Below are positions 4,275-46,973 of a DNA stretch of 64,000 nt, in pieces. Below the pieces are notes generated by a model that saw nothing but the letters and a program-made list of their open reading frames with translations, searched no databases and had not been told where the DNA came from. The position numbers and the translations under genes are program-made. Source of the DNA: Bacilli bacterium (GTDB lineage Bacteria; Bacillota_I; Bacilli_A; RFN20; CAG-826); assembly GCA_024408565.1 (NCBI GenBank), contig JAKSUW010000004.1, positions 5,863-69,862 on the forward strand. The letters are read 5' to 3'. Positions within the stretch are counted from its first letter, which is position 1; each line of letters begins with the position of its first letter.

Positions 4275-5468
4275 TTACTGATTTTTTACTATTGCAGTAA
4301 CATCTGCGCCTAAAGATAATACATATTCATCATCGTTAGCCAGTGGCTGAATTTTTGGTGATAAAGCGGCTTTAACATTAACAGTTTTAGTGCCTAGCTG
4401 AGGAAGATCAATTTGTATATCTATGCCGCCTTCAAATATGCCACCTGAACCATCGGGGAGCATACTTGCAATATCGATAGTTAGATTATTGTTTTCATCG
4501 AAAGAGAATAAAGGATGATCGGTACCGCTCGTTGCAGTCTTATCTTTAATCAATTCAATAATCGCGGTTTGTAGTCCTTCCATCTTCTTGCTAGTTGATA
4601 TTTGACCTAAATATGCATCATCGAGTTTAAAAGTTATTTTTCCTCCATCAGGATTGGATTGTAAGGTTGTGTCTAAAGTAATAAATGAGTCTTGTCCGTT
4701 AACATCTAGCGTAACATAAGCATCCATCTTATTGGTATCGTTAACTCCATTAAATTTAAAATCCAAATCTTTAAGACCAAGATAGTTGATACCATAATTT
4801 TCCGTATGTGTTTCGCTTATTTTTGTCTTTTTGAAGATTGGTTTATTAAAACCAACAATATTGAATTGTGAACAAAAAGCGCGGAGTGATCTAGCAGGAA
4901 TTTGGCATATATCATTGATTGTGGTGTCGGCAGGTTCACCTGCTACTAATTTCTTAAGAAGTTCTTCGTTATTCTTAAATAATTCAATTAAATATTCGCT
5001 TTCAAGTTTGCTTGTTATTGATTCTGTCAGAGCATTAATAAAATCAGTCCGCTCTGTATTTGCTTTTTGGCGATATGGAGATCCTTCATATTGTTTATAT
5101 CCTTCATCTCCTTCTGGGATTACTCCTGGAGGAAGAGAAGACCAATCCGCCACCCTCCCGCACATTTCTTCGTACGAAGCATCGTAACCAAAGACAAAGA
5201 AATTAAATAAATTGGGGATATCGGTTTCTGACAAGAGATGAGTGTTATCGGGGTCATTAATGATGTCTAGTGTGTAATCGCGAGTGTCCTTAAACTCAAG
5301 ATATGCTTTATCTTTATATTTAAGAGGCCCATCTATGGCTGAGGGATAATGAATAAGACTAAAGTTATCGCCAGCCTTGGAATCTAAATAGATTTGGGCC
5401 CCGAGTCCATCACTCGTTACCGGATCAAAAAGTTCTTCTAACTGCACTAATTCGATAAGAATGGACAT
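4275..5468 (-). CDS. Hypothetical secreted/surface protein, probably the C-terminal portion of a frameshift-disrupted gene that continues upstream to 6064
   Basis: 397-aa ORF with no signal peptide of its own. Its frame stays open for 98 further codons upstream (to 5774) without any ATG/GTG/TTG start. Confidence 0.4.
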   Translation of the reverse strand: MSILIELVQLEELFDPVTSDGLGAQIYLDSKAGDNFSLIHYPSAIDGPLKYKDKAYLEFKDTRDYTLDIINDPDNTHLLSETDIPNLFNFFVFGYDASYEEMCGRVADWSSLPPGVIPEGDEGYKQYEGSPYRQKANTERTDFINALTESITSKLESEYLIELFKNNEELLKKLVAGEPADTTINDICQIPARSLRAFCSQFNIVGFNKPIFKKTKISETHTENYGINYLGLKDLDFKFNGVNDTNKMDAYVTLDVNGQDSFITLDTTLQSNPDGGKITFKLDDAYLGQISTSKKMEGLQTAIIELIKDKTATSGTDHPLFSFDENNNLTIDIASMLPDGSGGIFEGGIDIQIDLPQLGTKTVNVKAALSPKIQPLANDDEYVLSLGADVTAIVKNQ

Positions 5469-5752
5469 TAAATCAATGGGAGCGTCTTCGTTATTTTCTT
5501 TCTTACCAGAAATAATATTAACTAAATCGTTAATAAAGGTTTGTCGGTCATAGGTGATTTCACCATGCTCTAAATCGGAATTAATATGAATACCAAAACC
5601 ACTAAAGAAGTTATTTAGTTGTTCATCCGAGAAATATTTGGTGCCAAGTTTAAGCAGTGCATCCTCAATAAAATTAAGCAGAGGGACATGACCTAACTGA
5701 ATGGTTTTTAATTTAAAAATGATTTTGTCATTCTTTTCTATGATTTCAGTTT

Positions 5753-6064
5753 TTACCTTAAACCTAATACCGAATTAAGTTCATCTTGCCCGAGTTTTAA
5801 TTCAACCCGGGGAATATTATCATCGGTTGTGTAATTAAGTGATTCATATAATTCATCACTAATGACGTCGTTTAAACTACTAATCGTTTTAACATTACTT
5901 AAGTCCGCTCCCGGTTTCCAGGTCACAAGGAAACCTAAAATAAACGTTAGTGGTAACACTAAAAAGATGATTAAAAAGGAAATTAATATCTTTAAACCAA
6001 TGTGCCGTTTTTTCTTTTTCGGCGCTTTGGTTTTTTCTTCTTTAGCAGTTTCTTTTTTGCCCAT
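5753..6064 (-). CDS. N-terminal signal-anchor ORF with a Lys-rich cytoplasmic tail and one TM helix, probably the N-terminal fragment of the same disrupted gene
   Basis: MGKKETAKEEKTKAPKKKKRHIGLKILISFLIIFLVLPLTFILGFLV... ends at 5753. The downstream ORF frame opens at 5774, so a 1-nt shift near 5757-5770 would fuse the two. Confidence 0.4.
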   Translation of the reverse strand: MGKKETAKEEKTKAPKKKKRHIGLKILISFLIIFLVLPLTFILGFLVTWKPGADLSNVKTISSLNDVISDELYESLNYTTDDNIPRVELKLGQDELNSVLGLR

Positions 6065-6118
6065 ACAATTGCAATATTTAATTATACCACTTGTTATATA
6101 TTATATAATACTCATGTA

Positions 6119-7032: not shown

Positions 7033-8007
7033 ATGTCTTTATTAATGATTGTTATTCTTTCACTCATTGGTTTACTGGTTGTTTTAGCGTTAATGTTACT
7101 ATTAACAAACGCGATTACCGCAAAAATCTTTAAGCACCGGGCGGATGGTGATGTTCGTTACGCCTTTATGCTTAAGGAAGATTTTCCTCAGTTAGTAAAA
7201 AAACCCGTAAGCATAGTTAACACGAAAAAGACAAGATTAAACGGAGCGGTTTTTTACTATCCGAAGCGTAAACACCTTGGGGTGATTATTTTTTATCACG
7301 GCTTATTTAGTGGTTATCTTAATTATCTCCAATTAATTGATTATTTTGCTCAGCACGATTACATCGTGGTGGCTTTTGATTTTACCGCCAGTATGTCAAG
7401 TGGTGGTAAAGCCATTAACGGTTTAGCCATTAGCGAAATTGACGCGATGGCAATTATTCGATTTGCTTTATCTCATCCGGAGTTAAAAGATTATCCACTT
7501 TATACAATCGGTCATTCGTGGGGCGCCCATACGGCGTTAACTTCGTTACTCTTAAGCGAAAAAATTAAAAAAGCGGTCGCGTTTAACCCATATAACTCAG
7601 ATGTGGACGCGGCGTATTCCTTTTCGCCATTAGCCAAAGTGCTTACCCCGTTTATTTATCTAAATAATTTATTCCGTTTTGGTTATACCGCTACTTATAA
7701 AGTCACTGATGTCTTAAAGTATAGCGAAGCTAAGAAGCTAATTATCGCAAGCGGAAAAGACCAAATTGTAAAGCCCACTTATGCTTATAAGAAATTTAAA
7801 AAGATTAACGATCCACATTTAACCTTACGTTATTTAAAAGAGGCTAATCACTTTACCTATATGGGTAACGATGGGGCGGAACATTTCACCAAAGAAATTG
7901 CCTTCCCGCACCGTGGACCAATTGATTTTACCAAGATTGATTACCAAAAAATTAACACGCTTAATTTATCACTATTAGATGAAGTGATAACCTTCTTAAA
8001 GAAATAA
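7033..8007 (+). CDS. alpha/beta hydrolase with an N-terminal membrane anchor
   Basis: N-terminal hydrophobic helix; GHSWGA (GxSxG nucleophile elbow); HGLFSG oxyanion-region motif. Confidence 0.6.
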   Translation: MSLLMIVILSLIGLLVVLALMLLLTNAITAKIFKHRADGDVRYAFMLKEDFPQLVKKPVSIVNTKKTRLNGAVFYYPKRKHLGVIIFYHGLFSGYLNYLQLIDYFAQHDYIVVAFDFTASMSSGGKAINGLAISEIDAMAIIRFALSHPELKDYPLYTIGHSWGAHTALTSLLLSEKIKKAVAFNPYNSDVDAAYSFSPLAKVLTPFIYLNNLFRFGYTATYKVTDVLKYSEAKKLIIASGKDQIVKPTYAYKKFKKINDPHLTLRYLKEANHFTYMGNDGAEHFTKEIAFPHRGPIDFTKIDYQKINTLNLSLLDEVITFLKK

Positions 8008-8772
8008 TTATTTCTTCGGTAAATATTTATGGCCTTTTTTAATCGCCATTAATTCGAATTGATCAATATCTTTTTCTTTTAAAAGTTTTTGATCTTCTTT
8101 ACTTAACTTTAATTGTTTAAATAAATCGGGCCGATATTTTTTGGTTAGTTTTAATTGTTGTTTCCGGTAATAGCGGTTAATCACTTTATGATTACCCGAA
8201 TATAAGACGAGTGGGACTTTATCACCTTGATAATCATAAGGTTCAGTATATTGTGGGTATTCAAGTAAATTATCGTTAAAGGATTCATGTGTTAAAGAAT
8301 CATCCGCGATAGCGCCTTTTAGTAAACGAATCACACTATCACTAATCGCCATACTCGCCACTTCGCCACCTGTTAAAATATAATCCCCAACTGAGATTAA
8401 TTCATCAACATATTTATTCACCCGTTCATCAACGCCTTCATAGTGACCACAGATAATAGTGATACTAGGAAGTTTGGCTAATTGAACCGCCTTCTTTTGG
8501 CTATATCTTTCTCCGCGTGCGCACGTTAATATAATGTGCGAGTGTTTTGCGTGCTTTTTTAAGGCGTCAACAATGGGTTGACATTTCATGACTAAACCTG
8601 CGCCGCCGGAAACGGGTGGAGTATCAACTCGACCATATTTATCTTTAGTGAAATCACGGATATTAATAATCTTAATTTCGACAATCTTTTTAGCGATTGC
8701 GCGTTTAATAATCGAGTTAGTTAAAAAGCCATTAAACATTTCTGGGAACAAAGTTAAGATATTAATCTTCAT
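8008..8772 (-). CDS. trmD: tRNA (guanine37-N1)-methyltransferase TrmD
   Basis: MKINILTLFPEMF... is the canonical TrmD N-terminus and an SPOUT-fold region follows. It overlaps rimM by 4 nt. Confidence 0.9.
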   Translation of the reverse strand: MKINILTLFPEMFNGFLTNSIIKRAIAKKIVEIKIINIRDFTKDKYGRVDTPPVSGGAGLVMKCQPIVDALKKHAKHSHIILTCARGERYSQKKAVQLAKLPSITIICGHYEGVDERVNKYVDELISVGDYILTGGEVASMAISDSVIRLLKGAIADDSLTHESFNDNLLEYPQYTEPYDYQGDKVPLVLYSGNHKVINRYYRKQQLKLTKKYRPDLFKQLKLSKEDQKLLKEKDIDQFELMAIKKGHKYLPKK

Positions 8773-9269
8773 AACATCCCCTCAATTAATTTTACCGTAA
8801 TCATGCCAGCTTTTAAGTTAACACCTAAGATAACCGCTTCCACAAACGGAATATCAAATTGGTGGTGATCTAGACTTTCGCAGCGAAGTAAGTAATGAAC
8901 GGGTAAAGTAATAACCGCTTTTACTTCACCAACGATATGGTCATTATCTTTGACTTTTAAGCCAACTAAATCGCTTAAGTGATAATAACCATCAGGAAGC
9001 TTTGCGTCTTCTTTCTTCACGTATAGTTCTTTGCCAATTAATGAATTAACTAATTTAATATCTTGGTAGTCTTTAAAAGAAACCACATCAAATTCCGCGT
9101 AATGATAAAAAGAAGCAACTACGAGCGGGTGATATTCATCTTTTTCGCGGTAATAAACCGTATTACCAGTTTGGTAACGTAAAAAAGCGAAGTCGGTGTG
9201 TGAAAACACTTTGACTTCGCCTTTTAAACCTTTTGGTTTACTGATTTTACCAAGTAAAAGGTAACCCAT
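8769..9269 (-). CDS. rimM: 16S rRNA processing protein RimM
   Basis: The LGKISKPKGLKGEVKV N-terminus is typical of RimM, and the operon position matches. Confidence 0.85.
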   Translation of the reverse strand: MGYLLLGKISKPKGLKGEVKVFSHTDFAFLRYQTGNTVYYREKDEYHPLVVASFYHYAEFDVVSFKDYQDIKLVNSLIGKELYVKKEDAKLPDGYYHLSDLVGLKVKDNDHIVGEVKAVITLPVHYLLRCESLDHHQFDIPFVEAVILGVNLKAGMITVKLIEGML

Positions 9270-9559
9270 TACTTTACTTCGTTAGTAGTGGGGGATGTAG
9301 TATCTACTTTTCCTTTATTGGCAATATCTTCAAAATGAAGATGGACAAACTTATTATCTTCTTTACCAGCAATGTTAATCGTTTCGCGTAAGGCGTTCGC
9401 GATCACACCGTGTTTACCAATTAAACGACTCACATTGTCGTTATCGGCATAAATATAAATCGTAATATCTCTTTCTTCTTCTTTGAGTTCGATTTCCACT
9501 TTGCTTGGATCAGTGACAATCGCATCAATGAAAGAATGAATAACTGCTTTATAATCCAT
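9269..9559 (-). CDS. KH-domain RNA-binding protein (YlqC-like)
   Basis: 96-aa protein lying between rpsP and rimM, as in Bacillota, with a GKHG KH-type motif (LIGKHGVIANALR). Confidence 0.7.
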   Translation of the reverse strand: MDYKAVIHSFIDAIVTDPSKVEIELKEEERDITIYIYADNDNVSRLIGKHGVIANALRETINIAGKEDNKFVHLHFEDIANKGKVDTTSPTTNEVK

Positions 9560-9561
9560 AA

Positions 9562-10008
9562 TTACTTAGCCTCCTTATTTTCAGTTGCTGGAGTAGCAGG
9601 AGCGTCCGCTTTCGGGGCTTCCGCCTTTGGCGCTTCAGCAGGTTTTGCTTCCGCTTTCGGGGCGGGCGCGGGTTTTACTTTCTTTACTTTCGGTTTCGCG
9701 GGACGGTCAAACTTATTCTTTTTGATGGTCTTGCTCTTCTTGTGGCTTGGACCTTTACTCGCGTTATACTTTGCGATTAAACCAAGACCAGTCAATAAAG
9801 TCTTAATTGAATCACTTGGTTGAGCGCCAGACTTAAGCCACTTCATGGCTAGCTCTTCGTTAATTTCGGCTTTCCCGGTGGTAGGATTAAAACGACCAAT
9901 TTGTTCGATGTAGCGACCATCACTCGCATAGCGAGAATCGGCAGCGACAATCCGGAAGTAGGGGTCGTTATGGCGACCTAAACGCGCCATTCTTAATTTA
10001 ACTGACAT
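9562..10008 (-). CDS. rpsP: 30S ribosomal protein S16 with an Ala/Pro/Lys-rich C-terminal extension
   Basis: MSVKLRMARLGRHNDPYFRIVAADSRY... is the canonical S16 core of about 85 aa. It is followed by a KPAPAPKAEAKPAEAPKAEAPKADAP low-complexity tail. Confidence 0.9.
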   Translation of the reverse strand: MSVKLRMARLGRHNDPYFRIVAADSRYASDGRYIEQIGRFNPTTGKAEINEELAMKWLKSGAQPSDSIKTLLTGLGLIAKYNASKGPSHKKSKTIKKNKFDRPAKPKVKKVKPAPAPKAEAKPAEAPKAEAPKADAPATPATENKEAK

Positions 10009-10150
10009 AGATCTCTCCTTGTTGTTTCGATGAGTAATATCGTACCCTAAATTATTACTATGTCAAGTAAAAATACTTAACAGTGATAACTGGTTTTTGT
10101 CGGTTCTTTAGAATATATAGTATAATGAAGCCGTTTGTGAGGATAAACTT

Positions 10151-12472
10151 ATGTTAGAGATTAATCACTTATGTAAATCGTATAAATCAAAAAGCGGCAC
10201 GATGGTCAAAGCCCTTGATGATATTTCGTTAAAATTTCCCAAGACGGGAATGGTATTTATTCTTGGTAAATCGGGTTCTGGTAAATCAACTTTGTTAAAC
10301 GTTCTCGGCGGACTCGATTCGTTTGATAGTGGTGAATTCTACGTAAAAGGAACGCCCGTTCATAACTTTAAACAAAATAAATTTGATAGTTATCGTAATA
10401 CTTATGTCGGTTTTATTTTCCAAGAATACAATATTCTAGATGAATTTACCGTTGGCCAAAATATCGCATTAGCGATGCAACTACAAAACCAAAAGCCGAC
10501 GAGTGAGACAATTAATAAAATCTTAGCGGATGTGGATCTCGATGGTTTAGGTGACCGGAAACCAAATGAGTTGTCCGGCGGACAAAAGCAAAGAGTCGCG
10601 ATCGCTCGGGCTCTTATTAAGAATCCCCAAATTATTATGGCTGATGAGCCAACTGGTGCACTTGATAGTAAAACTGGGATCCAAATCTTTGATGTACTTA
10701 AAAACCTATCAAAGGATCGGTTAGTCATCATTGTTTCGCATGACCGCGAATTCTCCGAAAAATACGCTGACCGGATTATTGAAATTAAAGATGGTCAAGT
10801 GTTAAGCGATGTTTCTTGTGCGAGTGGAAAACGCGTTCCAGTACAAGAGAATGTTATTTATCACGCGAACGAAATTACGGTTAAGAAGAACTATGTTCTT
10901 ACCCAAAAAGATTTAAAAGAAATTAATGAATATCTTAAACACCAAAAGGCTAATTTAACGATTAAGTCGGGTAAGGCCGATGGCTATAAAGGTGCGGGTA
11001 AAGGCCGGTTTACTAAAACCGATGAAAGTAAAATTGTCACCGACAAATCAGGCTTTACTTTGATTAAATCAAAACTACCATTAGGCCGGGCATTTAAAAT
11101 GGGCACCAGTGGTTTAAAACACAAAAAGTTTAAATTAGTGATGACGATTTTCCTTTCATTGATTTCCTTTAGTCTTCTTGGTATGTCAATTTCGATTGCA
11201 TTAGCAACACCCCAAAGCGCAACACAAAACGCATTATATGATTCCTATATTAACTTTGCCTCATTTAGTAAACAGTTTTATGATAAAAAAGATCGGAGTA
11301 TCTGGAATGATGATTATGCCGATTTTAAACCAGCTGATTTAGAGATTATCAAGAAAGAAACCGGTTTTTCCGTAATTCCTGTTAACGTAGGTTGGTATTC
11401 GCTTTCATCTGAAGATATCAACTATGACGAGTTATCGAATCACGAGGCATTTGCTTCTAGTATTTCTGGATATGTGCTAACAAAAGATTTAACAACAGAA
11501 CTCACATATGTTCCGAGTAATCCTGCAGGGCATAATCCAAGAGACAATACGGAGATAGCCATTCCTGATTATTTAGCGTGGTCATATGTTAAATATGGGA
11601 TAGGCACTTTGGCAGGGATGGAAAAGACAACTGAACTCGTGGGGGAAACAATTCATATTTTTGTTCCTAGTGGTACCAGTGATTACAAGGTTACTGGAAT
11701 TATTGACACTGGTTTCAATTTTAATGATGGTAGATATGCAGCTGCTCGAAGGATTACTAACAGCGAGGAACGTTCAGCCGAAGTATCTACGATTATGAAT
11801 GAAATTCGTTCATTCCGTGAAGATTCGATTGATGGGTGTGTACTTGTAACTAACGCGCTAGAAACTGATCCAAGGCCGTCCCGTGCTGTTGCGCGTTTTG
11901 ATACGACCGATAAATCGTTGATTAAAAAAGTAGCGAATTTTTCGTATGAACATTTATCTTTAACTGACGAAGAGAAAGCGGGTCTTCCTAGTGCAGTTTA
12001 TCGGCGCTTCATTTTAAACGATTATATTTCGCAGAGCATTAGCATGGCTTTTAACACGATGCAAATACTTACCCAAGTCTTCTTATATGTTGGTTTAGCC
12101 TTCGTCGTATTCTCGGGTTTACTCTTAGCGAACTTCATTTCTAATTCAATTACTTATCAGAAAAAGGAGATTGGTATCTTACGGGCGATTGGCTCAAGAA
12201 GTGCTGATGTCTTTAAGATCTACTTTGCTGAATCCTTCGTGATTGCGACTATTAACTTCATCTTATCAGCGGCGGCCTCTTGGGCTATCATGACTTTCGC
12301 CATTAACCCAAACATTAGTGCCGCTATCGGCGGATTCACCATCTTTAGTTTTGGTATTATACCAATCCTTGTTATCCTTGGTGTTTCATATCTTTCCGCT
12401 TTCGCGGCCACGTATTTACCGGTTAAACATATTGCTCGTAAACGTCCGATTGAAGCAATTCGCAATAAGTAA
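10151..12472 (+). CDS. ABC transporter, fused ATP-binding and FtsX/MacB-like permease protein
   Basis: Walker A GKSGSGKST, signature LSGGQKQR and Walker B IIMADEPT are present. The C-terminal about 450 aa carry a large extracytoplasmic domain and FtsX-type TM helices. Confidence 0.8.
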   Translation: MLEINHLCKSYKSKSGTMVKALDDISLKFPKTGMVFILGKSGSGKSTLLNVLGGLDSFDSGEFYVKGTPVHNFKQNKFDSYRNTYVGFIFQEYNILDEFTVGQNIALAMQLQNQKPTSETINKILADVDLDGLGDRKPNELSGGQKQRVAIARALIKNPQIIMADEPTGALDSKTGIQIFDVLKNLSKDRLVIIVSHDREFSEKYADRIIEIKDGQVLSDVSCASGKRVPVQENVIYHANEITVKKNYVLTQKDLKEINEYLKHQKANLTIKSGKADGYKGAGKGRFTKTDESKIVTDKSGFTLIKSKLPLGRAFKMGTSGLKHKKFKLVMTIFLSLISFSLLGMSISIALATPQSATQNALYDSYINFASFSKQFYDKKDRSIWNDDYADFKPADLEIIKKETGFSVIPVNVGWYSLSSEDINYDELSNHEAFASSISGYVLTKDLTTELTYVPSNPAGHNPRDNTEIAIPDYLAWSYVKYGIGTLAGMEKTTELVGETIHIFVPSGTSDYKVTGIIDTGFNFNDGRYAAARRITNSEERSAEVSTIMNEIRSFREDSIDGCVLVTNALETDPRPSRAVARFDTTDKSLIKKVANFSYEHLSLTDEEKAGLPSAVYRRFILNDYISQSISMAFNTMQILTQVFLYVGLAFVVFSGLLLANFISNSITYQKKEIGILRAIGSRSADVFKIYFAESFVIATINFILSAAASWAIMTFAINPNISAAIGGFTIFSFGIIPILVILGVSYLSAFAATYLPVKHIARKRPIEAIRNK

Positions 12473-12527
12473 AGTAAAAATTTGTGTTTAGTTCATAGAT
12501 AGTGCTATCATAACTAGGCACATTCTT

Positions 12528-12603
12528 GGGGCAGTAGCTCATCTGGGAGAGCGCATCGTTCGCAACGATGAGGTAGCGGGTTCGATCCCCGTCTGCTCCA
12601 CCA
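12528..12603 (+). tRNA. tRNA-Ala (anticodon CGC), 3' CCA encoded
   Basis: Hand-folded cloverleaf: acceptor GGGGCAG/CTGCTCC with the G3:U70 alanine identity pair; D stem GCTC/GAGC; anticodon stem CATCG/CGATG with loop TTCGCAA; T stem GCGGG/CCCGT with loop TTCGATC; discriminator A plus CCA. Confidence 0.85.
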
Positions 12604-12607
12604 AAAA

Positions 12608-12634
12608 ATATAGCAACTAGTTTGCTATTTTTTT
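12608..12634. terminator. Bidirectional rho-independent terminator between the tRNA-Ala/ABC unit and the convergent phosphatase gene
   Basis: A-run, then the TAGCAA-CTAGT-TTGCTA hairpin, then a T-run (aaaaaatatagcaactagtttgctattttttt). Confidence 0.6.
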
Positions 12635-12639
12635 ATTAA

Positions 12640-13758
12640 TTAAGCCTTCTTTTCTAAAAGAATATTCTGCATATTTTCGATATCATTTGCGGGAACTTTA
12701 ACAACATCAACTAAATACGCTTGTGTGCGTTCCGCTAAAGTTAATTCGTGATTGGATGGATCATATTCTTTGATGATATTAAGGCATTTTGCATCAAAGC
12801 CTTCAATATCACGAGGACCGCCAATATAAGCAAAGTTTGATAACATGTAGTCAAAGTGTACGCCGTCTTCGCTATCGCCAAGGAGCAAGCGAATAAGAGC
12901 CGCAAACATCCCAGTCCTATCGGTACCAATATGACAATGGAAATCGATTGGGTAATTATCTTTATTCGCTACAAATGCGAAGAAATCGCGGATTTCTCCA
13001 TAGTGTGAAGGAACGTTGAGCTTGAAATCGCCATAGTTAATGCGAATCTGTTTTAAAGTGACTTCGCCCCCGTAATCATTAAGTATAGAGTTACTAATGT
13101 ATTCAGGAGGAATATCTTCGCTTTCCATTCGTAAATCAATTTCGGATTTTACTTTTAATTCATTAAGCATTGTGTGGGCACCTTTTTCAGTAATGCGAGC
13201 GTCATCTGGACCAAACGTGGCCTCAGCGTGGTTTAATTCTGATGTCCGATAAATTAAGTTCGGTTTAACATATCCTAAACTTGTGGTGTACCCACCTAAA
13301 TCACGACAATTCTTTAATTCATCAATATCAAGAATGCGGATGGGTCCAGGATTAGTTTTAAAAGTTCCCTGTTCGATTAGTTGTTCATTAAGGGTAACCT
13401 TAAAATAATAGGTTTTACCACATTCAAGATTAGTAATGATGGCATTTTGATCTTCAGTATAAATAGTGTGTTCGTTAATCTTTGGATCATCATAGCGACA
13501 ATTATATGAATAATCGATACGGTAATTTTTCGCAGTCGGACCATTAATTTTAAAACTAACTGGGAGCGGTTTATCTAAATTAGCTGTGCCCGTTGCTTCC
13601 GCAGGAATATTAGCAGGATCATTACCTTCAAGATATTCTTTTTGTAGATCGGTATAAAGAGTAAAGTCACCTAAATCAATTGGGGTAACGCTATTTTGGC
13701 ATCCACTAAAAGCGATAAGTGAAGTAAAACAGGCACTAAATAAAAAGAGTTTATTCAT
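12640..13758 (-). CDS. Lipoprotein of the protein-tyrosine/dual-specificity phosphatase family (CX5R active site)
   Basis: Signal peptide plus lipobox LIAFSGC, and the HCHIGTDRTG (HCxxGxxRT) P-loop motif. Confidence 0.55.
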   Translation of the reverse strand: MNKLFLFSACFTSLIAFSGCQNSVTPIDLGDFTLYTDLQKEYLEGNDPANIPAEATGTANLDKPLPVSFKINGPTAKNYRIDYSYNCRYDDPKINEHTIYTEDQNAIITNLECGKTYYFKVTLNEQLIEQGTFKTNPGPIRILDIDELKNCRDLGGYTTSLGYVKPNLIYRTSELNHAEATFGPDDARITEKGAHTMLNELKVKSEIDLRMESEDIPPEYISNSILNDYGGEVTLKQIRINYGDFKLNVPSHYGEIRDFFAFVANKDNYPIDFHCHIGTDRTGMFAALIRLLLGDSEDGVHFDYMLSNFAYIGGPRDIEGFDAKCLNIIKEYDPSNHELTLAERTQAYLVDVVKVPANDIENMQNILLEKKA

Positions 13759-33130: not shown

Positions 33131-35935
33131 ATGAAAAAGACAATATTAATTACACCAATAATGCTTACGCTTTTTTTGGTAAGTTGTAATGGCGGTGGCG
33201 ATGTTCCTCCATCCGTAATAGAACACTTTGTTACATTTGAATGTAATGGTGGCACGCCGCATATTGATACGCAACGAGTAAAAGATGGTGAGAAAGCAGT
33301 TAAACCCGATGATCCACGTGCGGATTTTGGTACCTTTATTGATTGGTGTAGTGATGAAACGTGCCTAAACCATTATGATTTTAATACTCCTGTAACTTCT
33401 GATTTGACGTTATACGCCCATTACGATAAAACAGTTGATTTTGCCTTTATTGGTGAACATTGTACGATTAATGGTAAATCTGAATTTGTTGAAACCCATA
33501 ATTATAACGAATTTGTTACCTACGAGATTGATGCCGAAAGCGCGGCTTATTCAATTGAAGATCATATTGATTTCGCCATTAATGGCGTTCCGTCAGATGA
33601 TTATACTTATAATCCAGATACTCATATATTTACTGCCACTTGTAAAGGCGACGCTAGTTTAACCATCGCTTCCAAAAAGATGCCCGCCATGTACGTTTCA
33701 CTTGTTACAGAAGAAAATATAACGCCTGATCCTGATTATGTTGTTAAATTTGATTGCACTACCGAAGATGATGGTCCGTTCATTGTCGACTGGGGTGATG
33801 GGACAATTGATTCAAAATGTATCCATCCCTATCTTGCCACAACTAAAAATCCTAAAATCATTATTTATGGTAATCTTAGCGAAATTTCGTTTTCTGATAT
33901 AGACGGACCCTATGCACTGGGTAATCAATATATTACACAGATTACTTTTCCCGAGTGTCTTGATAGTCTCCCTGATTACGCTTTAAATGGTATTAGTCAA
34001 CTTAATAATTTTCATTTGCCATCCAAAATGACGAGCATCGGTAGTTATGCTTTTAGCGGTTGTACCAACTTAAGGGATTGCGTCTTACCAACGCTAGAAA
34101 GTAAAACCATTGAAGAGGGCACTTTTGCCGGTTGTTCAAAATTAGAAACAGCGTTAATTCAAAACGGAATCACCACCATTGGCGAAAAGGCTTTTATTAA
34201 CTGCGGAAACTTAGGTGAGTTAGTTTTACGGAAAGATGTTATATTAGCTAAGAATGATGCTTTCAAAAATTGCACTCTATTGCGGTTATATTGTTTTAAT
34301 ACGGAAAGCGAAATCACTCTTGAAAATATCGGGGATGCTGGGGTTGCCGAAATTATATATGGTTGTGCTAGTAAAAATATAGATACGACGGGACAATATT
34401 CTTGCTTAGTTAAAAAGAACGCTTTACAACAAGAGGAAATCACCATTTTAGAATGTTTAAAATTGAATGATACTTCTGGTAAAGTAGTAATTCCAAAGGA
34501 ATTAACAATAAACATTAAAAATAAAGAAGAAGTGTTGCCAGTTATCTCGATTGGTTATCAAGCTTTTTCAGGCAAGAATGTTCGTGGTTTAGTTACGGAA
34601 GTTGACTTTAAAGAGAATCCCAAAATTTCACTTGATGCGGAGGCTTTCCGTGGTTGTAGTAATTTAAAAACTTTAACCTTTGAACCTAGTTATGCGAATA
34701 GATTTGACGGTGAACATAATTTATATGGTTTAAAATTCGGTGATCACGCTTTTATGAATTGCTACGCTTTAGCGGGTGATATACCAGTTACCTTATACTA
34801 CGACACAATCGCATCGATGGGGAGCGATGTTTTTAAGATGGATAACGAAACGAAATGCCAAGTGTGGTGCGAAGAAGAAACTAAGGCTGAGGAATGGCAG
34901 GATGATTGGAATGCTTCTGGCATTACCAAGTATGGGCTTTGTTATACCGGTAACGACGTGGATAATAAATACAAAATTAATTTGTATCACGATAATCAAA
35001 AGACATCTGATAATGGAAAGGATGAATTTTATATCGGTATCGCTAGCAAAATTGATCCAAAAGTGACTGAGTGGGAGGTTGAATCGGAATTAAAGATTAG
35101 CGATTATGGGCGTGCTCCTAATTCCGTTGAAGTAAGAGTCATCGAATCATTGTGTATGCAAGGGAACAATGATATTCAAAAGGTGGATGCACCTAGTGTT
35201 ACAATAATCAAAGAAAAAGCGTTTGATAATTGCTCAAACTTAAAGTCGTTTGCGTTTTCCAAAACAATTGAAGAAATAGGCGCAGATGCGCTTGCGCATA
35301 CCGCATTAACGGATATAACACTCGACAAAGAGAATGCAAAAATTACTGTTTTTCATCCTATTGGCGGTGGTGGGGTTAAAAATCAAACCATAGAAAAAAT
35401 AACTCTTCCAAATGGTTTAAAATCAATCGACAATAACGCCTTTTCCTGGTTCCAAGCTTTGAAAACAATTGATTATGATGCGGAAAAATGCCAGTTAGAA
35501 TACATTGGCAAAAACGCCTTTACCGAAACAGTCATCGCTATCGATAATTTGCGTTTAAAACAATTAAAATATGTAGATACAAACGCTTTTGATACTCTTA
35601 TAACAGGTCGCCCATCAATTAAATCGATAACTTTCCCTAGTATTATTACATGTGGTAATAACGCGTTTAGTGGAGCCGGGCTTGAATCGGTAACTCTCGG
35701 CGCAGATTTAGCCACTCTTGGTTACAGGGTGTTCTGGAATAATCCAAATCTTAAAGTATTTGATTTAAGTCTAGTAGAAGATATTCCAGATTTCGTTGAC
35801 ACGCTCGGGATAGAAGGGGAATGCAAAATTTATGTTCCTGCGGCATTACTCGAAGCATTTAAATCCGATAAGTCCTGGTCACAATATGCGAATCAAATTT
35901 TCCCAGCACCATCGACTCCAAGCGTGAACGCTTAA
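33131..35935 (+). CDS. Large surface lipoprotein with a Listeria-Bacteroides-type repeat and BspA-type leucine-rich repeats
   Basis: Lipobox LVSCNGG. The N-terminal block FVTFECNGGT...TLYAHY resembles a Flg_new repeat. There are more than 8 BspA-type LRR units of the form I(G)xxAFxxCxxL, for example IGSYAFSGCTNL, IGEKAFINCGNL, DAEAFRGCSNLKTL and IKEKAFDNCSNLKS. Confidence 0.7.
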   Translation: MKKTILITPIMLTLFLVSCNGGGDVPPSVIEHFVTFECNGGTPHIDTQRVKDGEKAVKPDDPRADFGTFIDWCSDETCLNHYDFNTPVTSDLTLYAHYDKTVDFAFIGEHCTINGKSEFVETHNYNEFVTYEIDAESAAYSIEDHIDFAINGVPSDDYTYNPDTHIFTATCKGDASLTIASKKMPAMYVSLVTEENITPDPDYVVKFDCTTEDDGPFIVDWGDGTIDSKCIHPYLATTKNPKIIIYGNLSEISFSDIDGPYALGNQYITQITFPECLDSLPDYALNGISQLNNFHLPSKMTSIGSYAFSGCTNLRDCVLPTLESKTIEEGTFAGCSKLETALIQNGITTIGEKAFINCGNLGELVLRKDVILAKNDAFKNCTLLRLYCFNTESEITLENIGDAGVAEIIYGCASKNIDTTGQYSCLVKKNALQQEEITILECLKLNDTSGKVVIPKELTINIKNKEEVLPVISIGYQAFSGKNVRGLVTEVDFKENPKISLDAEAFRGCSNLKTLTFEPSYANRFDGEHNLYGLKFGDHAFMNCYALAGDIPVTLYYDTIASMGSDVFKMDNETKCQVWCEEETKAEEWQDDWNASGITKYGLCYTGNDVDNKYKINLYHDNQKTSDNGKDEFYIGIASKIDPKVTEWEVESELKISDYGRAPNSVEVRVIESLCMQGNNDIQKVDAPSVTIIKEKAFDNCSNLKSFAFSKTIEEIGADALAHTALTDITLDKENAKITVFHPIGGGGVKNQTIEKITLPNGLKSIDNNAFSWFQALKTIDYDAEKCQLEYIGKNAFTETVIAIDNLRLKQLKYVDTNAFDTLITGRPSIKSITFPSIITCGNNAFSGAGLESVTLGADLATLGYRVFWNNPNLKVFDLSLVEDIPDFVDTLGIEGECKIYVPAALLEAFKSDKSWSQYANQIFPAPSTPSVNA

Positions 35936-38640: not shown

Positions 38641-38669
38641 TTGACATACACTATACATTGTCATATACT
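38641..38669 (+). promoter_or_regulatory. Near-consensus sigma-70 promoter for the dinJ-like gene
   Basis: TTGACA at 38641-38646, a 17-nt spacer, then TATACT at 38664-38669. An AGGAGA RBS lies before the ATG at 38692. Confidence 0.6.
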
Positions 38670-38691
38670 ATCCTTAGCAGAGGAGAATATT

Positions 38692-38988
38692 ATGGCAATT
38701 ATTCAAATTCGTATCGAAGATAGTTTGAAAGATCAGGCGGTGGCTATTTATGATGGTCTTGGTCTTGATTTATCAACCGCGGTAAGAATGTTTATGAAAC
38801 AATCGGTGATCCAAAAAGGTTTACCTTTTTCTGTTAAACTAAAACCTGACGGACAAAACGCGATGGAACGAATTATCAAGGAGTGCCAAAATATTTCTAA
38901 GCAAAACGGTAACGATAAAATGACGATGGATGACATTAACGCTTTTATTGCGAAGTGTCATAAGGAAAAGAAAAACGGTAAGAAGTAA
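38692..38988 (+). CDS. RelB/DinJ-family ribbon-helix-helix antitoxin-like protein (orphan)
   Basis: MAIIQIRIEDSLKDQAVAIYDGLGLDLSTAVRMFMKQSVIQKGLPF closely matches the DinJ N-terminal RHH region. No RelE/YafQ-like partner is adjacent. The start is taken at 38692; the track's upstream extension is unlikely. Confidence 0.6.
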   Translation: MAIIQIRIEDSLKDQAVAIYDGLGLDLSTAVRMFMKQSVIQKGLPFSVKLKPDGQNAMERIIKECQNISKQNGNDKMTMDDINAFIAKCHKEKKNGKK

Positions 38989-40675: not shown

Positions 40676-40749
40676 AGGGGTATCGTACAAAGGTAGTACA
40701 ACGGTCTCCAAAACCGTTTATGTGGGTTCAATTCCTACTACCCCTGCCA
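40676..40749 (+). tRNA. tRNA-Trp (anticodon CCA), CCA encoded
   Basis: Hand fold: acceptor AGGGGTA/TACCCCT; D stem GTAC/GTAC; anticodon stem ACGGT/ACCGT with loop CTCCAAA; T stem GTGGG/CCTAC with loop TTCAATT. A TATAAT -10 lies at about 40659-40664. Confidence 0.85.
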
Positions 40750-40759
40750 TATAATCAAT

Positions 40760-40782
40760 AAGTCCGTTAACGGACTTTTTTA
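40760..40782 (+). terminator. Rho-independent terminator after tRNA-Trp
   Basis: AAGTCCG-ttaa-CGGACTT hairpin followed by TTTTTT. Confidence 0.7.
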
Positions 40783-40791
40783 ATGCAAAAA

Positions 40792-43236
40792 TTAAACTTT
40801 CTTGAGCATTTTAATTAGCCAAGAAGTAGAAATCTTGCTCGCTTTTTCAGAAAACGTTTTAAAATCGATTCCGCTATTACCATCAGCCGTATCGGAAATA
40901 CTTCTAATAATACAAAAAGGTGTTCCGTTTTGTAGACAAACTTGGCCAATTGCCGCGCCTTCCATTTCCGCGCATAAAGCACCTGGAAAGTTTTTCAGGA
41001 TGTCATTTCTTTGCTTCGCAGTGGAAACAAATTGATCACCGGAAACAATAATTCCTCTTTTTACATTAATTCCATCGGTCTTAGCCGACATAATTTTATC
41101 CGCTAATAATTTGTTGGCTCTCATTTCAACTGCACCAAGGGCGTCAATATAACCAAGTGGTAAACCAATCTTGCGTAAATCTAAGTCCCATTCAATTACC
41201 GAATCAGAAATGACCACATCGCCAACTTTTAAGTTTGGATCAAGCGTACCAGCGCAGCCGGTGTTAATAATATAATCCGGATGATAACCATCAATCATTG
41301 CTTGGGCACAAATACCAGCGGAGACCTTACCCATCCCACACTGCATAATAATTACTTCGTTATTACCTAATATTCCGGTATAGGCTGGTTTATTTAGTAA
41401 GGTAATCTTTTTCACATTCGAAAGTTCGGCCCGGAATAAATCTTCTTCGTATTTTAAAGCGGCAATGATTCCATAACGGATTCTTCGCGCGTCGGCTTTT
41501 TTGCTTTCGTGGATTAAACTCGGGAGAACAAGCTTACCACAAGTTAAATCATCGTTATCTTCTTCGTGCGTATCTTCAAACACTATGACATCCCAGCCGT
41601 TTTTAATAAAATCTTGTTCGAGTTTTTTAATTAAGGAAGTTTTCATAGTGCTAAAGCCATTGTCCACGGCGTTATAAGTGGTATAAATCGGCGTAAGTTT
41701 AATCATGAATTTTTGTTTATCAAATAATTTATTAATTTTTGCGATGTCGATGGTTAAAGTATCACCAACGGCAAAAGATAGGGCATATTTCATACCCTTT
41801 GGGAGGGGCATTTTCTTAGCAATCTCGGCAATATCTTCAAGCGGTAAAGAGCGATCAGCCATTAAGAGACCTCTTATCTTATTATCGGTAGTGTGAATAC
41901 TAAATTGTAATAAGGCTTGACCATTATAGACTTCGTTTTTAATTCGACAATATTCAAGAATAAAGCGTTCGACTTTAACCTTATTTCTTGGCAACATCGT
42001 TGAGACATTCGGCACAATTTGCTCAACATCGATTTTATTCGTGATGATTTTTCTTAAATCATATTCAATAAAATTAAGTAACTCATCGTTCATGGTCGGT
42101 TCACCCATGCGCATGAAGTTAATTTCAAAGTATTTAGTGTGCGAGAGGTAGTGGGTGTCTAAGATTACGTTTAATTGATAGGCGAATTCTTCGCTGGTGA
42201 CGTTACCATGTAAACCAAGCCCTGGACAATCACAGAAGGCACAGGCCATATTACAGCCTTTTTGGCAAGACAAAAGGACATACCACCCACGCTCATAATT
42301 AATTTTCGTTAGTTCGTTACGGCCTTGGTAGCCTAAGAAATCCGCTTTCCGAATATGTTCGGGGTAATCGCCCGGATATGAGACGAATTCAATGTATTTT
42401 TTACTGTCGACATAAATTGTTCCGTGGTTTCGACTAATGATTTTTAGTCCCGCGTTTTTCTTAATGATATTGTGGCGAGTCATCATAGCAATGATTGAAA
42501 GAAGCAAAATTGAATTGGTCGTAATGATTGTTACTCGATAAATGATCTGCCAGATTTTTGGTGTTTCTTCATTTTGGTGGAGTAAATAAACAACTAGAAT
42601 ATCTAGACCAAAAATTAATAACTGCACTAACGAGGAAATGAGGATGATCATTTCGTTACCGGATAGTTTCCGTTTTCCTTTATGGAGGAAGCGCGAATAC
42701 ATGTGATCTAATAGAACCATTAACGGTAGGCCAAACGCTAGACACATGACAAAGTCATTAAGTCCGGCAAATAACGCTGTTTCCCATAACCCTGATCCGG
42801 AGGCATAGAGTTGAATTAAACCAACGGCAATACCAATCGGGATAGCGTTAACGGCCATTAAAAGGACATAAGCAATCACTTTATATGGCGAATCTAAGCG
42901 TGTCCGCATCGAGATGGTTTTAACTAATAATTTCCAAATATAGTAGGGCAATAATCCATAGATTAGTTGTGGTATAAACCCCATTAATGCCACGATAATT
43001 CCATAGCCAGAAACTAAATCAGAAAAAAAGTTGGCGAACGCACAACTAATTGCCGCGGGCCAACCATACGCCAAGCCTAAAACCGGGTTAAGAGCAGCGG
43101 ATGGTCTTACATCAGAGACCATGTACGCGGGTAAGGTTTTGTTAAATGTTATCGTAATGGCAAAAAAGAGAATAAAAGTCGCTAAAAACACGATGATATT
43201 CTTTTTACTAAAGATTTTTTTGAATAGTTTTTCCAT
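40792..43236 (-). CDS. Three-domain fusion protein: polytopic membrane domain + RlmN/Cfr-like radical SAM domain + MTA/SAH (5'-deoxyadenosine) nucleosidase domain
   Basis: The ORF is continuous from 43296 to 40792. The start is preferred at MEKLF (43236) because TATAAT elements lie inside the first 20 codons of the longer track ORF. ORF aa about 21-280 are hydrophobic with at least 6 TM segments. aa 347-354 CNMACAFC is a CxxxCxxC motif. RlmN-like blocks are present: FMRMGEP, FSIHTTDNKIR and the C-terminal DDLTCGKL. aa about 605-834 carry YGIIAALKYEE, IIMQCGMGKV and CAEMEGAA, which are Pfs/MtnN hallmarks. Confidence 0.7.
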   Translation of the reverse strand: MEKLFKKIFSKKNIIVFLATFILFFAITITFNKTLPAYMVSDVRPSAALNPVLGLAYGWPAAISCAFANFFSDLVSGYGIIVALMGFIPQLIYGLLPYYIWKLLVKTISMRTRLDSPYKVIAYVLLMAVNAIPIGIAVGLIQLYASGSGLWETALFAGLNDFVMCLAFGLPLMVLLDHMYSRFLHKGKRKLSGNEMIILISSLVQLLIFGLDILVVYLLHQNEETPKIWQIIYRVTIITTNSILLLSIIAMMTRHNIIKKNAGLKIISRNHGTIYVDSKKYIEFVSYPGDYPEHIRKADFLGYQGRNELTKINYERGWYVLLSCQKGCNMACAFCDCPGLGLHGNVTSEEFAYQLNVILDTHYLSHTKYFEINFMRMGEPTMNDELLNFIEYDLRKIITNKIDVEQIVPNVSTMLPRNKVKVERFILEYCRIKNEVYNGQALLQFSIHTTDNKIRGLLMADRSLPLEDIAEIAKKMPLPKGMKYALSFAVGDTLTIDIAKINKLFDKQKFMIKLTPIYTTYNAVDNGFSTMKTSLIKKLEQDFIKNGWDVIVFEDTHEEDNDDLTCGKLVLPSLIHESKKADARRIRYGIIAALKYEEDLFRAELSNVKKITLLNKPAYTGILGNNEVIIMQCGMGKVSAGICAQAMIDGYHPDYIINTGCAGTLDPNLKVGDVVISDSVIEWDLDLRKIGLPLGYIDALGAVEMRANKLLADKIMSAKTDGINVKRGIIVSGDQFVSTAKQRNDILKNFPGALCAEMEGAAIGQVCLQNGTPFCIIRSISDTADGNSGIDFKTFSEKASKISTSWLIKMLKKV

Positions 43237-43457
43237 TATTTTGCTCAACGATAATATTATAATATTATACCCGCACCTAATGTTAAAAATGAGCATAGAT
43301 TTTTATTATTAGACTCGATTAGATGCGAACTAGTCATAAAATGGATTATTATTGTTAATATTTTAAACAAACTGATTGATATAAATATTAATTGAAATTT
43401 TCAATTATTTTCTTATAATTATTAATGGATTTAATCCAATTAATAAGGAGAAAATAT

Positions 43458-44006
43458 ATGGAATTAAAACTTACTAACAAGAAATTAGCCACTATTTTAT
43501 TAGGGCTAGGATGCTTGCTTGCAATCGTTAGCATCTTTTGCTTTTTTGGCTCTGCTTTCAAAATAGTGATGGACGACGGTTCTATTCACGAGTTTGTTAA
43601 CGGACCATCGATGTTTGTCGCGATGTTTGGCGGAATGTATACTGTCGTAATTGGCGGCGAGGAGTATCCTTTTGGTCCAATTGAGGCTGACGCTGGGATG
43701 ATTACGCTTTTTGTTTTTGCACTACTTGCTTTATTAGTCGCCGTTATCATTGCTGTTGGCTTCTTCTCTAAGAAAATTAAACCTAATTTTATTACTATTC
43801 TTACGGTAGCGATGTGTGTGTTCCTTCTTGTTGCCGTTATTATGTCTTTCTGCACACTCCACATATTAGATATTGCGGGAGATCCTGACCCATTAACGGG
43901 AGCTGTTGATAAATTAGGATCAGGCGCAATTAGCTATTCAGTGTTAGGTCTTATCGCTTTATTATCTAGTGTCGGTGGCGTTATTCTTAGCAAGAAAGCT
44001 GCTTAA
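43458..44006 (+). CDS. Hypothetical integral membrane protein
   Basis: 4 to 5 hydrophobic helices. An AAGGAG RBS lies before the ATG at 43459 (MELKL...). Divergent from the fusion gene. Confidence 0.5.
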   Translation: MELKLTNKKLATILLGLGCLLAIVSIFCFFGSAFKIVMDDGSIHEFVNGPSMFVAMFGGMYTVVIGGEEYPFGPIEADAGMITLFVFALLALLVAVIIAVGFFSKKIKPNFITILTVAMCVFLLVAVIMSFCTLHILDIAGDPDPLTGAVDKLGSGAISYSVLGLIALLSSVGGVILSKKAA

Positions 44007-44962: not shown

Positions 44963-45388
44963 ATGGTCGTGAAACGAGAATTAATCTTACGGAACATTTT
45001 ATTTGCCTTTGGCGTAATCTTAGCCTTAGTTTCGAGTACGGTTTTAGTTTTGGAAATTATTGATTTAGTACAAGGCCCAATCGTTGAAGAAACTTCTTAC
45101 TTAGTTTTACAATTTGCCACTGTTATCTTTAAACTCATTCTCTCGCTATACGCCATTTATGGCCTTCGGCGGATTGATGAAGTGATTAATCCACTATTTA
45201 CTTTTACTATTCTTTACATGGTGTTTGTTATTTTCCAAACAATCTCGTTTGTAGGTAATGGTGGGTTAGCGCATTTATTAGAGCCAACGAGCCTTAACGC
45301 GATTCTTGACTTAGTAGTGGCGATTATCTTCTTTGCCATTACCTTAACCTTTAAGATTGATGATTGGCGGAGCAGCGACAAGGAGTAA
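44963..45388 (+). CDS. Hypothetical small membrane protein
   Basis: 141-aa protein with 4 hydrophobic helices. Confidence 0.4.
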   Translation: MVVKRELILRNILFAFGVILALVSSTVLVLEIIDLVQGPIVEETSYLVLQFATVIFKLILSLYAIYGLRRIDEVINPLFTFTILYMVFVIFQTISFVGNGGLAHLLEPTSLNAILDLVVAIIFFAITLTFKIDDWRSSDKE

Positions 45389-46899: not shown

Positions 46900-46973
46900 T
46901 GGAGCAGGTGGCGAGAATCGAACTCGTGTAATCAGCTTGGAAGGCTGATGTTCTACCATTGAACTACACCTGC
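46900..46973 (-). tRNA. tRNA-Gly (anticodon UCC), CCA encoded
   Basis: Reverse-strand fold: acceptor GCAGGTG/CACCTGC; D stem GTTC/GAAC; anticodon stem TCAGC/GCTGA with loop CTTCCAA; T loop TTCGATT with an A:C mismatch at the base of the T stem; discriminator T plus CCA. Confidence 0.8.

Follow-up and report, generated by a model that had tools for sequence, protein, structure and literature searches.

A gut Bacilli gene joins a QueT-type S-component, an RlmN-like radical-SAM domain and an MTA/SAH nucleosidase in one polypeptide

What might a single polypeptide do that joins a transporter subunit, a radical S-adenosylmethionine (SAM) domain and a nucleosidase? The question is raised by a gene on the reverse strand of a 64,000-nucleotide stretch of DNA from a Bacilli bacterium (assembly GCA_024408565.1, contig JAKSUW010000004.1, positions 5,863 to 69,862), which was analyzed at its full length and is called the window below. 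At 40792-43296(-), an earlier note made from the letters alone had described one uninterrupted reverse-strand open reading frame (ORF) of 834 codons, and the ORF listing confirms that it is single and unbroken and that it contains every peptide the note had quoted. The encoded protein consists of a QueT-type S-component belonging to the energy-coupling factor (ECF) transporters, a radical-SAM domain that resembles the methyltransferases RlmN and Cfr in fold, and a 5'-methylthioadenosine/S-adenosylhomocysteine (MTA/SAH) nucleosidase. The reading that we favor, with a probability of about 0.45, is that the gene product is a stand-alone, constitutively promoted membrane enzyme, forming a self-contained unit for the uptake and conversion of a small heteroaromatic nutrient with removal of 5'-deoxyadenosine (5'-dA) in cis.

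The three domains could each be assigned independently, and their presence in a single polypeptide, as claimed by the earlier note, is upheld by the conservation of the architecture. A whole-protein search returned about 52 protein clusters of 770-870 amino acids (aa), 38-99% identical and encoded on independent contigs, with the same three domains in frame, together with about seven two-domain proteins of 572-655 aa (QueT plus radical SAM, including P0054-P0058), and a scan of one genome per species found the three-domain gene in 14 species genomes. The carriers are gut metagenome-assembled genomes (MAGs) labelled Bacilli, Clostridia, Acutalibacteraceae, Christensenella, Limivicinus and Lachnospiraceae, and the NCBI names given to these proteins are either "MTA/SAH nucleosidase" or "QueT transporter family protein." No paper describing the three-domain architecture was found in the literature searched, so that within this scope the architecture is, as the note had supposed, not one described before. 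The fusion genes are monocistronic and their neighbors vary between genomes, none of them being conserved, as expected for a self-contained unit. The upstream regions of related loci carry plain promoters and leaders of 30-50 nt.

Judged by profile matches and motifs, the chain ends in a complete MTA/SAH nucleosidase that retains its catalytic residues, and the full-length Pfs/MtnN domain reported by the earlier note is thus confirmed. Pfam PNP_UDP_1 aligned with residues 607-828 (E 1e-45), the NCBIfam equivalog models for MTA/SAH nucleosidases were matched above their cut-offs (NF004079, 223.4 bits versus 169; TIGR01704, 174 versus 73.8), and many solved MTA nucleosidases (MTANs) were matched by sequence, with E-values down to 2e-46. 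The domain also matched futalosine-hydrolase and HpnG models (1e-20 to 5e-25), and solved aminodeoxyfutalosine nucleosidases were found among its relatives. It shares with MtnN/Pfs the equivalog-level score and the catalytic residues but differs in not being free-standing, and in a second clade of the fusion family a divergent MTAN-like domain occupies the same position.

Indeed, the fusion family consists of two clades, the window protein belonging to clade A. The catalytic motifs are conserved in each, as YEE, AEMEG and SISD in clade A and as the equivalents IEM, DMES and VSD in clade B, and we take them to correspond to Glu12, Met173-Glu174 and Ser196-Asp197 of the Escherichia coli MTAN. 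The clade A nucleosidase exceeds the MtnN equivalog cut-off, whereas that of clade B, for which MtnN is likewise the best match, reaches 84-93 bits versus 169. Within clade A, the median identity was 63% for the membrane domain, 62% for the radical-SAM domain and 79% for the nucleosidase; within clade B, the corresponding values were 46, 59 and 66%, and between the clades they were 45, 48 and 26%. The nucleosidase is thus the most conserved domain inside each clade and by far the least conserved between them. Given this low between-clade identity, the differing MtnN scores and the retention of the catalytic set in both clades, the most economical interpretation is that the QueT-radical SAM core acquired an adenine-nucleoside hydrolase twice, or acquired one once and later had it replaced.

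Such a history may be taken as strong comparative evidence that the activity of the nucleosidase matters to the radical-SAM domain. The idea of a "self-detoxifying" enzyme, put forward in the earlier note, gains weight from it, since a nucleosidase of this type would have been fused to a transporter-radical SAM core twice independently. Action of the nucleosidase on queuosine is argued against by the established MTAN mechanism, in which the catalytic Asp protonates N7, an atom that a 7-deazaguanine does not have. No second PNP_UDP_1 gene was found within the window. A genome with the two-domain QueT-radical SAM gene (L085) also has an unfused PNP_UDP_1 gene, located two genes downstream (5394-6086), beyond rpsB and tsf; it was rejected as an orthologue of the fused nucleosidase, being only 24-31% identical to either clade.

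The N-terminal domain has the six-helix fold of an S-component. Pfam QueT (PF06177) matched residues 43-197 with 37.8-39.3 bits versus a gathering score of 33.7, covering profile positions 10-140/141, and it was detected in 50 of the 52 fusion-family members (best E-value, 3.6e-13); no other S-component family was consistently matched. These data bear out the ECF S-component-like membrane domain of the earlier note, and they correct its count of at least six helices to a total of eight, that is, six S-component helices and two extra ones (193-219 and 225-261 of the domain model; hydropathy segments 211-241 and 251-273). The even number of helices, the Lys-rich N terminus and the basic linker after helix 8 suggest, by the positive-inside rule, that the two extra helices bring the chain back to the cytoplasmic side and that both enzyme domains would be cytoplasmic.

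The middle domain was matched only weakly by Pfam Radical_SAM in the window protein (residues 344-473, 23.3 bits, below the gathering score of 29.5), and PF04055 was matched by all 52 fusion-family members, with a best E-value of 1.3e-8. All 52 proteins have the three cysteines of the cluster motif, C348, C352 and C355; a fourth one (C357, giving CxxxCxxCxC) is present in 51, and Cys450 is also among the invariant residues. The motif CNMACAFC had been recognized correctly in the earlier note, at a position that has to be shifted from 347-354 to 348-355. An AlphaFold2 model of residues 285-603 was obtained with a pLDDT of 93, and the top solved structures retrieved with it by Foldseek, 6FZ6 and 5HR6, are RlmN-type, with a TM-score of about 0.65 at 15-18% identity. 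A sequence search of solved structures with the middle domain found only Cfr and RlmN (E about 1e-7).

These matches bring up the first rival explanation, namely, that the protein is a class A enzyme of the RlmN/Cfr type, as the earlier note had classed it, which would C-methylate an imported small molecule via a methyl-Cys586 at the expense of two SAM, the nucleosidase clearing both SAH and 5'-dA. This explanation would account for the RlmN-type structural relatives and for the features shared with RlmN/Cfr: the cluster loop is of the CX3CX2C form, the second strand is followed by a GEP motif, and a C-terminal loop contains a Cys. Cys586 takes the place of RlmN Cys355 in that loop; every clade A protein has it, as do at least 90% of the sequences in the wider alignment. 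A sister group of the radical-SAM family keeps a C-terminal CGQ motif, and MTAN is established to hydrolyze both SAH and 5'-dA. However, the RlmN model TIGR00048 gave 43.4 bits versus a cut-off of 290 and the Cfr models gave 42-44 bits versus 468-550, and the NCBIfam alignments begin only at RlmN position 99. The domain model begins with 57 residues of beta strands, forming a beta-rich N-terminal sub-domain where RlmN has a helical one. At the position aligned to RlmN Cys118, the family profile has Leu or a different hydrophobic residue, and the nearby Cys344 of the window protein varies among the fusions (N in 18, S in 14, C in 10 and T in 5). Cys586 itself appears to be dispensable: of the 52 fusions, 42 have Cys at this position, 7 have Ser and 3 have Asp, and since the ten variants are scattered and the nearest relative of each (60-83% identity) is of the Cys type, the residue was lost at least five times independently in otherwise intact proteins. 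Further differences from RlmN/Cfr are the additional conserved CxC and Cys450, the fusion to a transporter subunit and a nucleosidase, and the fact that the relatives of the domain are mostly phage genes.

We conclude that the likeness to RlmN and Cfr, with 14-18% identity, is at the level of the fold only and that the middle domain probably does not work as a class A methyltransferase of the RlmN methyl-Cys type. The membership in the RlmN/Cfr class is thus not supported in the form claimed by the earlier note, C-methylation of an imported molecule becomes unlikely, and the two-SAM stoichiometry, with SAH and 5'-dA as products, is an assumption in view of the low scores, the hydrophobic residue at the Cys118 position and the losses of Cys586. 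The acidity of the radical-SAM family (isoelectric point of about 5.4-5.6) and the beta-rich N-terminal sub-domain, which is unlike the helical RNA-binding domain of RlmN, favor a small-molecule substrate, in support of the note's view that the substrate is unlikely to be rRNA.

The radical-SAM family is small, with 433 representatives at an E-value of 1e-3 or better and 20 at 1e-30 or better among 1.84 billion representative proteins. It corresponds to the PHROG profile phrog_24834, of unknown function, which the window domain matches at 3e-58. Stand-alone homologues of about 318 aa, which are 40-47% identical and lack both the membrane and the nucleosidase domains, are common in viral contigs, mainly those of gut phages; 324 relatives were found in IMG/VR viral contigs, and relatives were found in 366 species genomes. 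An annotated example is the "radical SAM domain-containing protein" of Bacteroides phage Versailles (ON453897; L089, 7001-7936), encoded in the replication module. In cellular assemblies, the stand-alone gene was found in Bacteroides, gut Alphaproteobacteria, Treponema, Methanobrevibacter and candidate phyla, where it often adjoins resolvases or DNA methylases, fitting mobile DNA. Among 80 IMG/VR viral loci (L090-L169), the phage gene was near DNA methylases in about 25, a SAM synthetase in 7, an FMN reductase in 7 and a SPASM radical-SAM gene in 9, and one large-phage lineage (L152-L168, contigs of 106-270 kb) carries arrays of 9-13 tRNA genes at most 8 kb from it. The sister group, which is 26-33% identical, has the core motifs in common and lacks the fourth Cys and Cys450, includes proteins with an isochorismatase-family hydrolase attached at the C terminus or a pyridine-nucleotide-disulphide flavoprotein (Pyr_redox_2) attached at the N terminus (P0217, P0221, P0246, P0255, P0315; P0261, P0287, P0288), whose genomic contexts were uninformative. 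Electrons could plausibly be supplied by the flavoprotein and the FMN reductase. The PADLOC models for anti-phage defense gave weak superfamily matches to the nucleosidase domain only, and none of them matched the radical-SAM domain.

In the reading that we favor, the QueT-type S-component would capture a small heteroaromatic nutrient, probably working with the shared ECF energizing module of the cell, and the ligand class best fitting the QueT assignment would be a 7-deazaguanine of the queuosine family. The two extra helices would put the remaining chain in the cytoplasm, where the [4Fe-4S] radical-SAM domain, representing a new RlmN-like family, would transform the captured molecule via a 5'-deoxyadenosyl radical, and the fused MTA/SAH-type nucleosidase would at once hydrolyze the inhibitory 5'-dA, plus SAH if this were formed. 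Since QueT is the only S-component family that the membrane domain matches, a queuosine-family base is our best single guess for the ligand, albeit a tentative one. The most attractive version of such a transport-coupled salvage machine, which would perform a new radical reaction on a micronutrient taken up by the cell, is one in which the protein would be a non-orthologous queuine-to-preQ1 lyase and the phage homologues would be widespread, so far overlooked auxiliary genes for manipulating the same host metabolite pool; it is rather doubtful.

The match of the membrane domain to QueT is what suggested queuine salvage by the QueL route in the first place. In Clostridioides difficile, the S-component gene qrtT is flanked by queK, for a queuosine hydrolase, and queL, for the radical-SAM queuine lyase (PMC11477304, PMC11130926), an operon for which both papers cite Yuan et al. 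2019, and PMC12632869 notes explicitly that a route independent of QueL is still missing for Firmicutes. The fusion resembles queK-qrtT-queL in combining an S-component, a radical-SAM enzyme and a nucleoside hydrolase and in occurring in gut anaerobes. Its parts are, however, non-homologous and are fused in one chain without a preQ1 riboswitch rather than encoded in an operon. The S-component is QueT-type and not QrtT-type, the hydrolase is of the MtnN kind, with catalytic residues of the adenine type, and not, like QueK, an inosine-uridine (IU) nucleoside hydrolase, and the 319-residue RlmN-like domain is unrelated in sequence to the 230-residue QueL beyond the shared barrel. The IU-nucleoside hydrolase motif was absent from every fusion locus checked. 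The middle domain was also rejected as a QueL on structural and sequence grounds, because the solved QueL (6P78, from C. spiroforme; the characterized C. difficile enzyme is CD1684) was retrieved by Foldseek at rank 9, with an E-value of 3.9e-3, a TM-score of 0.42 and 14% identity, and a search of the PDB sequences with the family profile missed it even at an E-value of 10.

Several observations weigh against the reading that we favor. QueT genes are typically under preQ1 riboswitch control, and neither a preQ1 nor any other Rfam riboswitch was found upstream of the gene or in 17 related fusion loci. Only 1 of the 17 fusion loci is near queuosine genes, the fusion gene lying 3.5 kb from an upstream queA-tgt pair (L016). 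The QueT score barely exceeds the Pfam threshold, and a homologue search limited to the membrane domain yielded nothing except fragments from the fusion family, with no close stand-alone QueT among them. No recognizable genes for the ECF A and T components were found within the window. The solved QueL is no homologue of the radical-SAM domain, the resemblance being that of a generic radical-SAM barrel. Finally, the contexts of the relatives are not those of queuosine metabolism: the closest relatives of the radical-SAM domain, which are stand-alone phage genes, are found beside DNA methylases, SAM synthetase and flavin reductases, one lineage lies in an NAD-salvage cluster, and distant relatives are fused to isochorismatase-family amidases.

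A different role of the nucleosidase is suggested by the futalosine pathway, in which MqnE is paired with MTAN/MqnB, and by the formation of the hopanoid side chain, in which HpnH is paired with HpnG, each being a radical-SAM enzyme with a nucleosidase of the PNP_UDP_1 family. By the same logic, the adenosyl radical would be added to the substrate and the nucleosidase would then strip off the adenine, leaving a ribose-derived chain. A nucleosidase that was recruited twice and is the most conserved domain within each clade fits a catalytic partner better than a convenience, its matches to the futalosine-hydrolase and HpnG models and its aminodeoxyfutalosine nucleosidase relatives point in the same direction, and the loss of the Cys pair is compatible with a direct addition of the adenosyl radical. 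However, the MqnE/MqnB and HpnH/HpnG proteins are separate and their radical-SAM enzymes come from other families, no similarity of the window domain to MqnE or HpnH was detected, its nearest fold being RlmN, and the clade A nucleosidase resembles an ordinary housekeeping MtnN. As there are also stand-alone phage homologues and two-domain fusions without a linked nucleosidase, we consider adenosylation improbable.

The NAD-salvage cluster mentioned above is the basis of another explanation, in which the S-component would have drifted to a ligand related to nicotinamide or nicotinate that the radical-SAM domain unmasks for the Preiss-Handler pathway. Stand-alone homologues of the core family were found in the order pncB, pncA (isochorismatase family), radical-SAM gene, nadE, DUF5662, nrtR at six gut alphaproteobacterial loci (L035, L037, L038 [7878-12986], L040, L042 and L064), with diverged versions in L019, L020 and L071, and the isochorismatase-family amidase domains fused to sister-group proteins would fit the same theme. 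Yet the neighboring genes of the six loci are 87-97% identical across supposedly different species, so that these loci may represent a single mobile element, and NAD genes accompany the radical-SAM gene at just 1 of the 80 viral loci and at no fusion locus. Since, in addition, the fused amidase domains are not close to the PncA of the cluster and the membrane domain consistently matches QueT and no other S-component family, pyridine salvage is a long shot.

We judge equally improbable that the protein is a membrane-tethered modifier of nucleic acids, such as an RlmN-like modifier of tRNA or rRNA or a C-modifier of adenine in DNA, in which case the link to QueT would reflect the shared theme of the tRNA anticodon loop and not substrate channelling. 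The nearest characterized fold, RlmN, does modify both rRNA and tRNA, and the DNA methylases, SAM synthetase genes and tRNA arrays near the phage homologues could be read in this sense. On the other hand, the family is acidic and lacks the RlmN N-terminal helical domain and Cys118, and a fusion to the substrate-capture subunit of a transporter is hard to rationalize for a macromolecular substrate. As for an artefact, that is, three neighboring genes merged by mis-assembly or sequencing error, it is excluded for practical purposes by the recurrence of the in-frame architecture in the 52 or so clusters, from independent samples and assemblers, and in the 14 species genomes.

The true start of the gene is almost certainly the methionine of MEKLF, as the earlier note had preferred, and not the first codon of the longest ORF, which extends 20 codons further upstream. 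The NCBI protein P0001, which is 99% identical to the window protein, has 814 aa, the homologous gene in the near-identical genome L005 also begins at MEKLF, and a promoter-like site lies within the 20 upstream codons, 5' of the MEKLF ATG, although such consensus matches are as common in shuffled sequence as here. The coordinates of the gene, its domains and its flanking signals are given in Table 1.

Table 1. Coordinates of the fusion gene, its parts and the adjoining signals in the window
Feature	Window positions	Strand	ORF residues or details	Basis
Probable coding sequence, 814 aa from MEKLF	40792..43236	-	Stop codon 40792-40794	Homologue lengths, upstream promoter-like site
ECF-transporter S-component domain, QueT family, six helices	42682..43236	-	21 to ~205	
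Two extra transmembrane helices and basic linker	42445..42681	-	~206-284	
Radical-SAM domain, RlmN/Cfr-like fold, family phrog_24834	41488..42444	-	285-603 (319 aa)	
Cluster motif	42226..42255	-	C348-x3-C352-x2-C355-x-C357	Conservation in 52 proteins
Cys586 in DDLTCGKL, positional equivalent of RlmN Cys355	41539..41541	-		
MTA/SAH/5'-deoxyadenosine nucleosidase domain (MtnN/Pfs)	40795..41487	-	604-834	
Sigma-70-type promoter-like site	43259..43286	-	TTAACA, 16-nt spacer, TATTAT	Consensus match only
Stem-loop terminator, bidirectional, common to fusion gene and convergent tRNA-Trp gene	40760..40777	both		
tRNA-Trp(CCA), converging on fusion gene	40676-40749	+		
tRNA-Gly(UCC)	46900-46973	-		
tRNA-Ala(CGC)	12528-12603	+		

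The genes around the fusion gene are housekeeping or unrelated ones, namely, plsX, rnc, ftsY, ylxM and ffh on one side and those for a membrane protein, a major intrinsic protein (MIP) channel, Ham1, thioredoxin and TraX on the other. Over the region compared, the window is 99% identical to contig JAKSUV010000004.1 of a Bacilli MAG from horse feces. Just 5' of plsX, 33131-35935(+) encodes a surface protein of 934 aa that contains leucine-rich repeats of the BspA type and a Listeria-Bacteroides repeat, and ftsY is separated from the ylxM-ffh pair by a RelB-antitoxin-like ORF (38641-38988(+); Pfam RelB, 8e-11). Near the fusion gene are two small polytopic membrane ORFs without a Pfam match, 43425-44006(+) and 44963-45388(+), which are both kept in the sister genome L005 and are not found beside fusion genes elsewhere.

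As all three of its parts come from known superfamilies, the protein is not categorically new. Besides the architecture itself, the double recruitment of the nucleosidase and the link to a widespread phage radical-SAM family are not described in the literature searched, and neither a natural radical-SAM domain fused to a scavenging nucleosidase nor an ECF S-component fused to a downstream enzyme was found there. Radical-SAM enzymes are inhibited by 5'-dA, and the double origin of the nucleosidase fusion argues that its removal in cis matters in vivo. The fusion of an S-component to an enzyme would be a form of metabolic trapping, and the whole protein offers a Rosetta-stone clue to the uncharacterized phrog_24834 radical-SAM family. 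If the ligand is a queuosine-family base, the fusion would bear on the recycling of queuine by gut Firmicutes without QueL, and the queuine-to-preQ1 lyase version, if true, would fill the acknowledged QueL-independent gap in this phylum.

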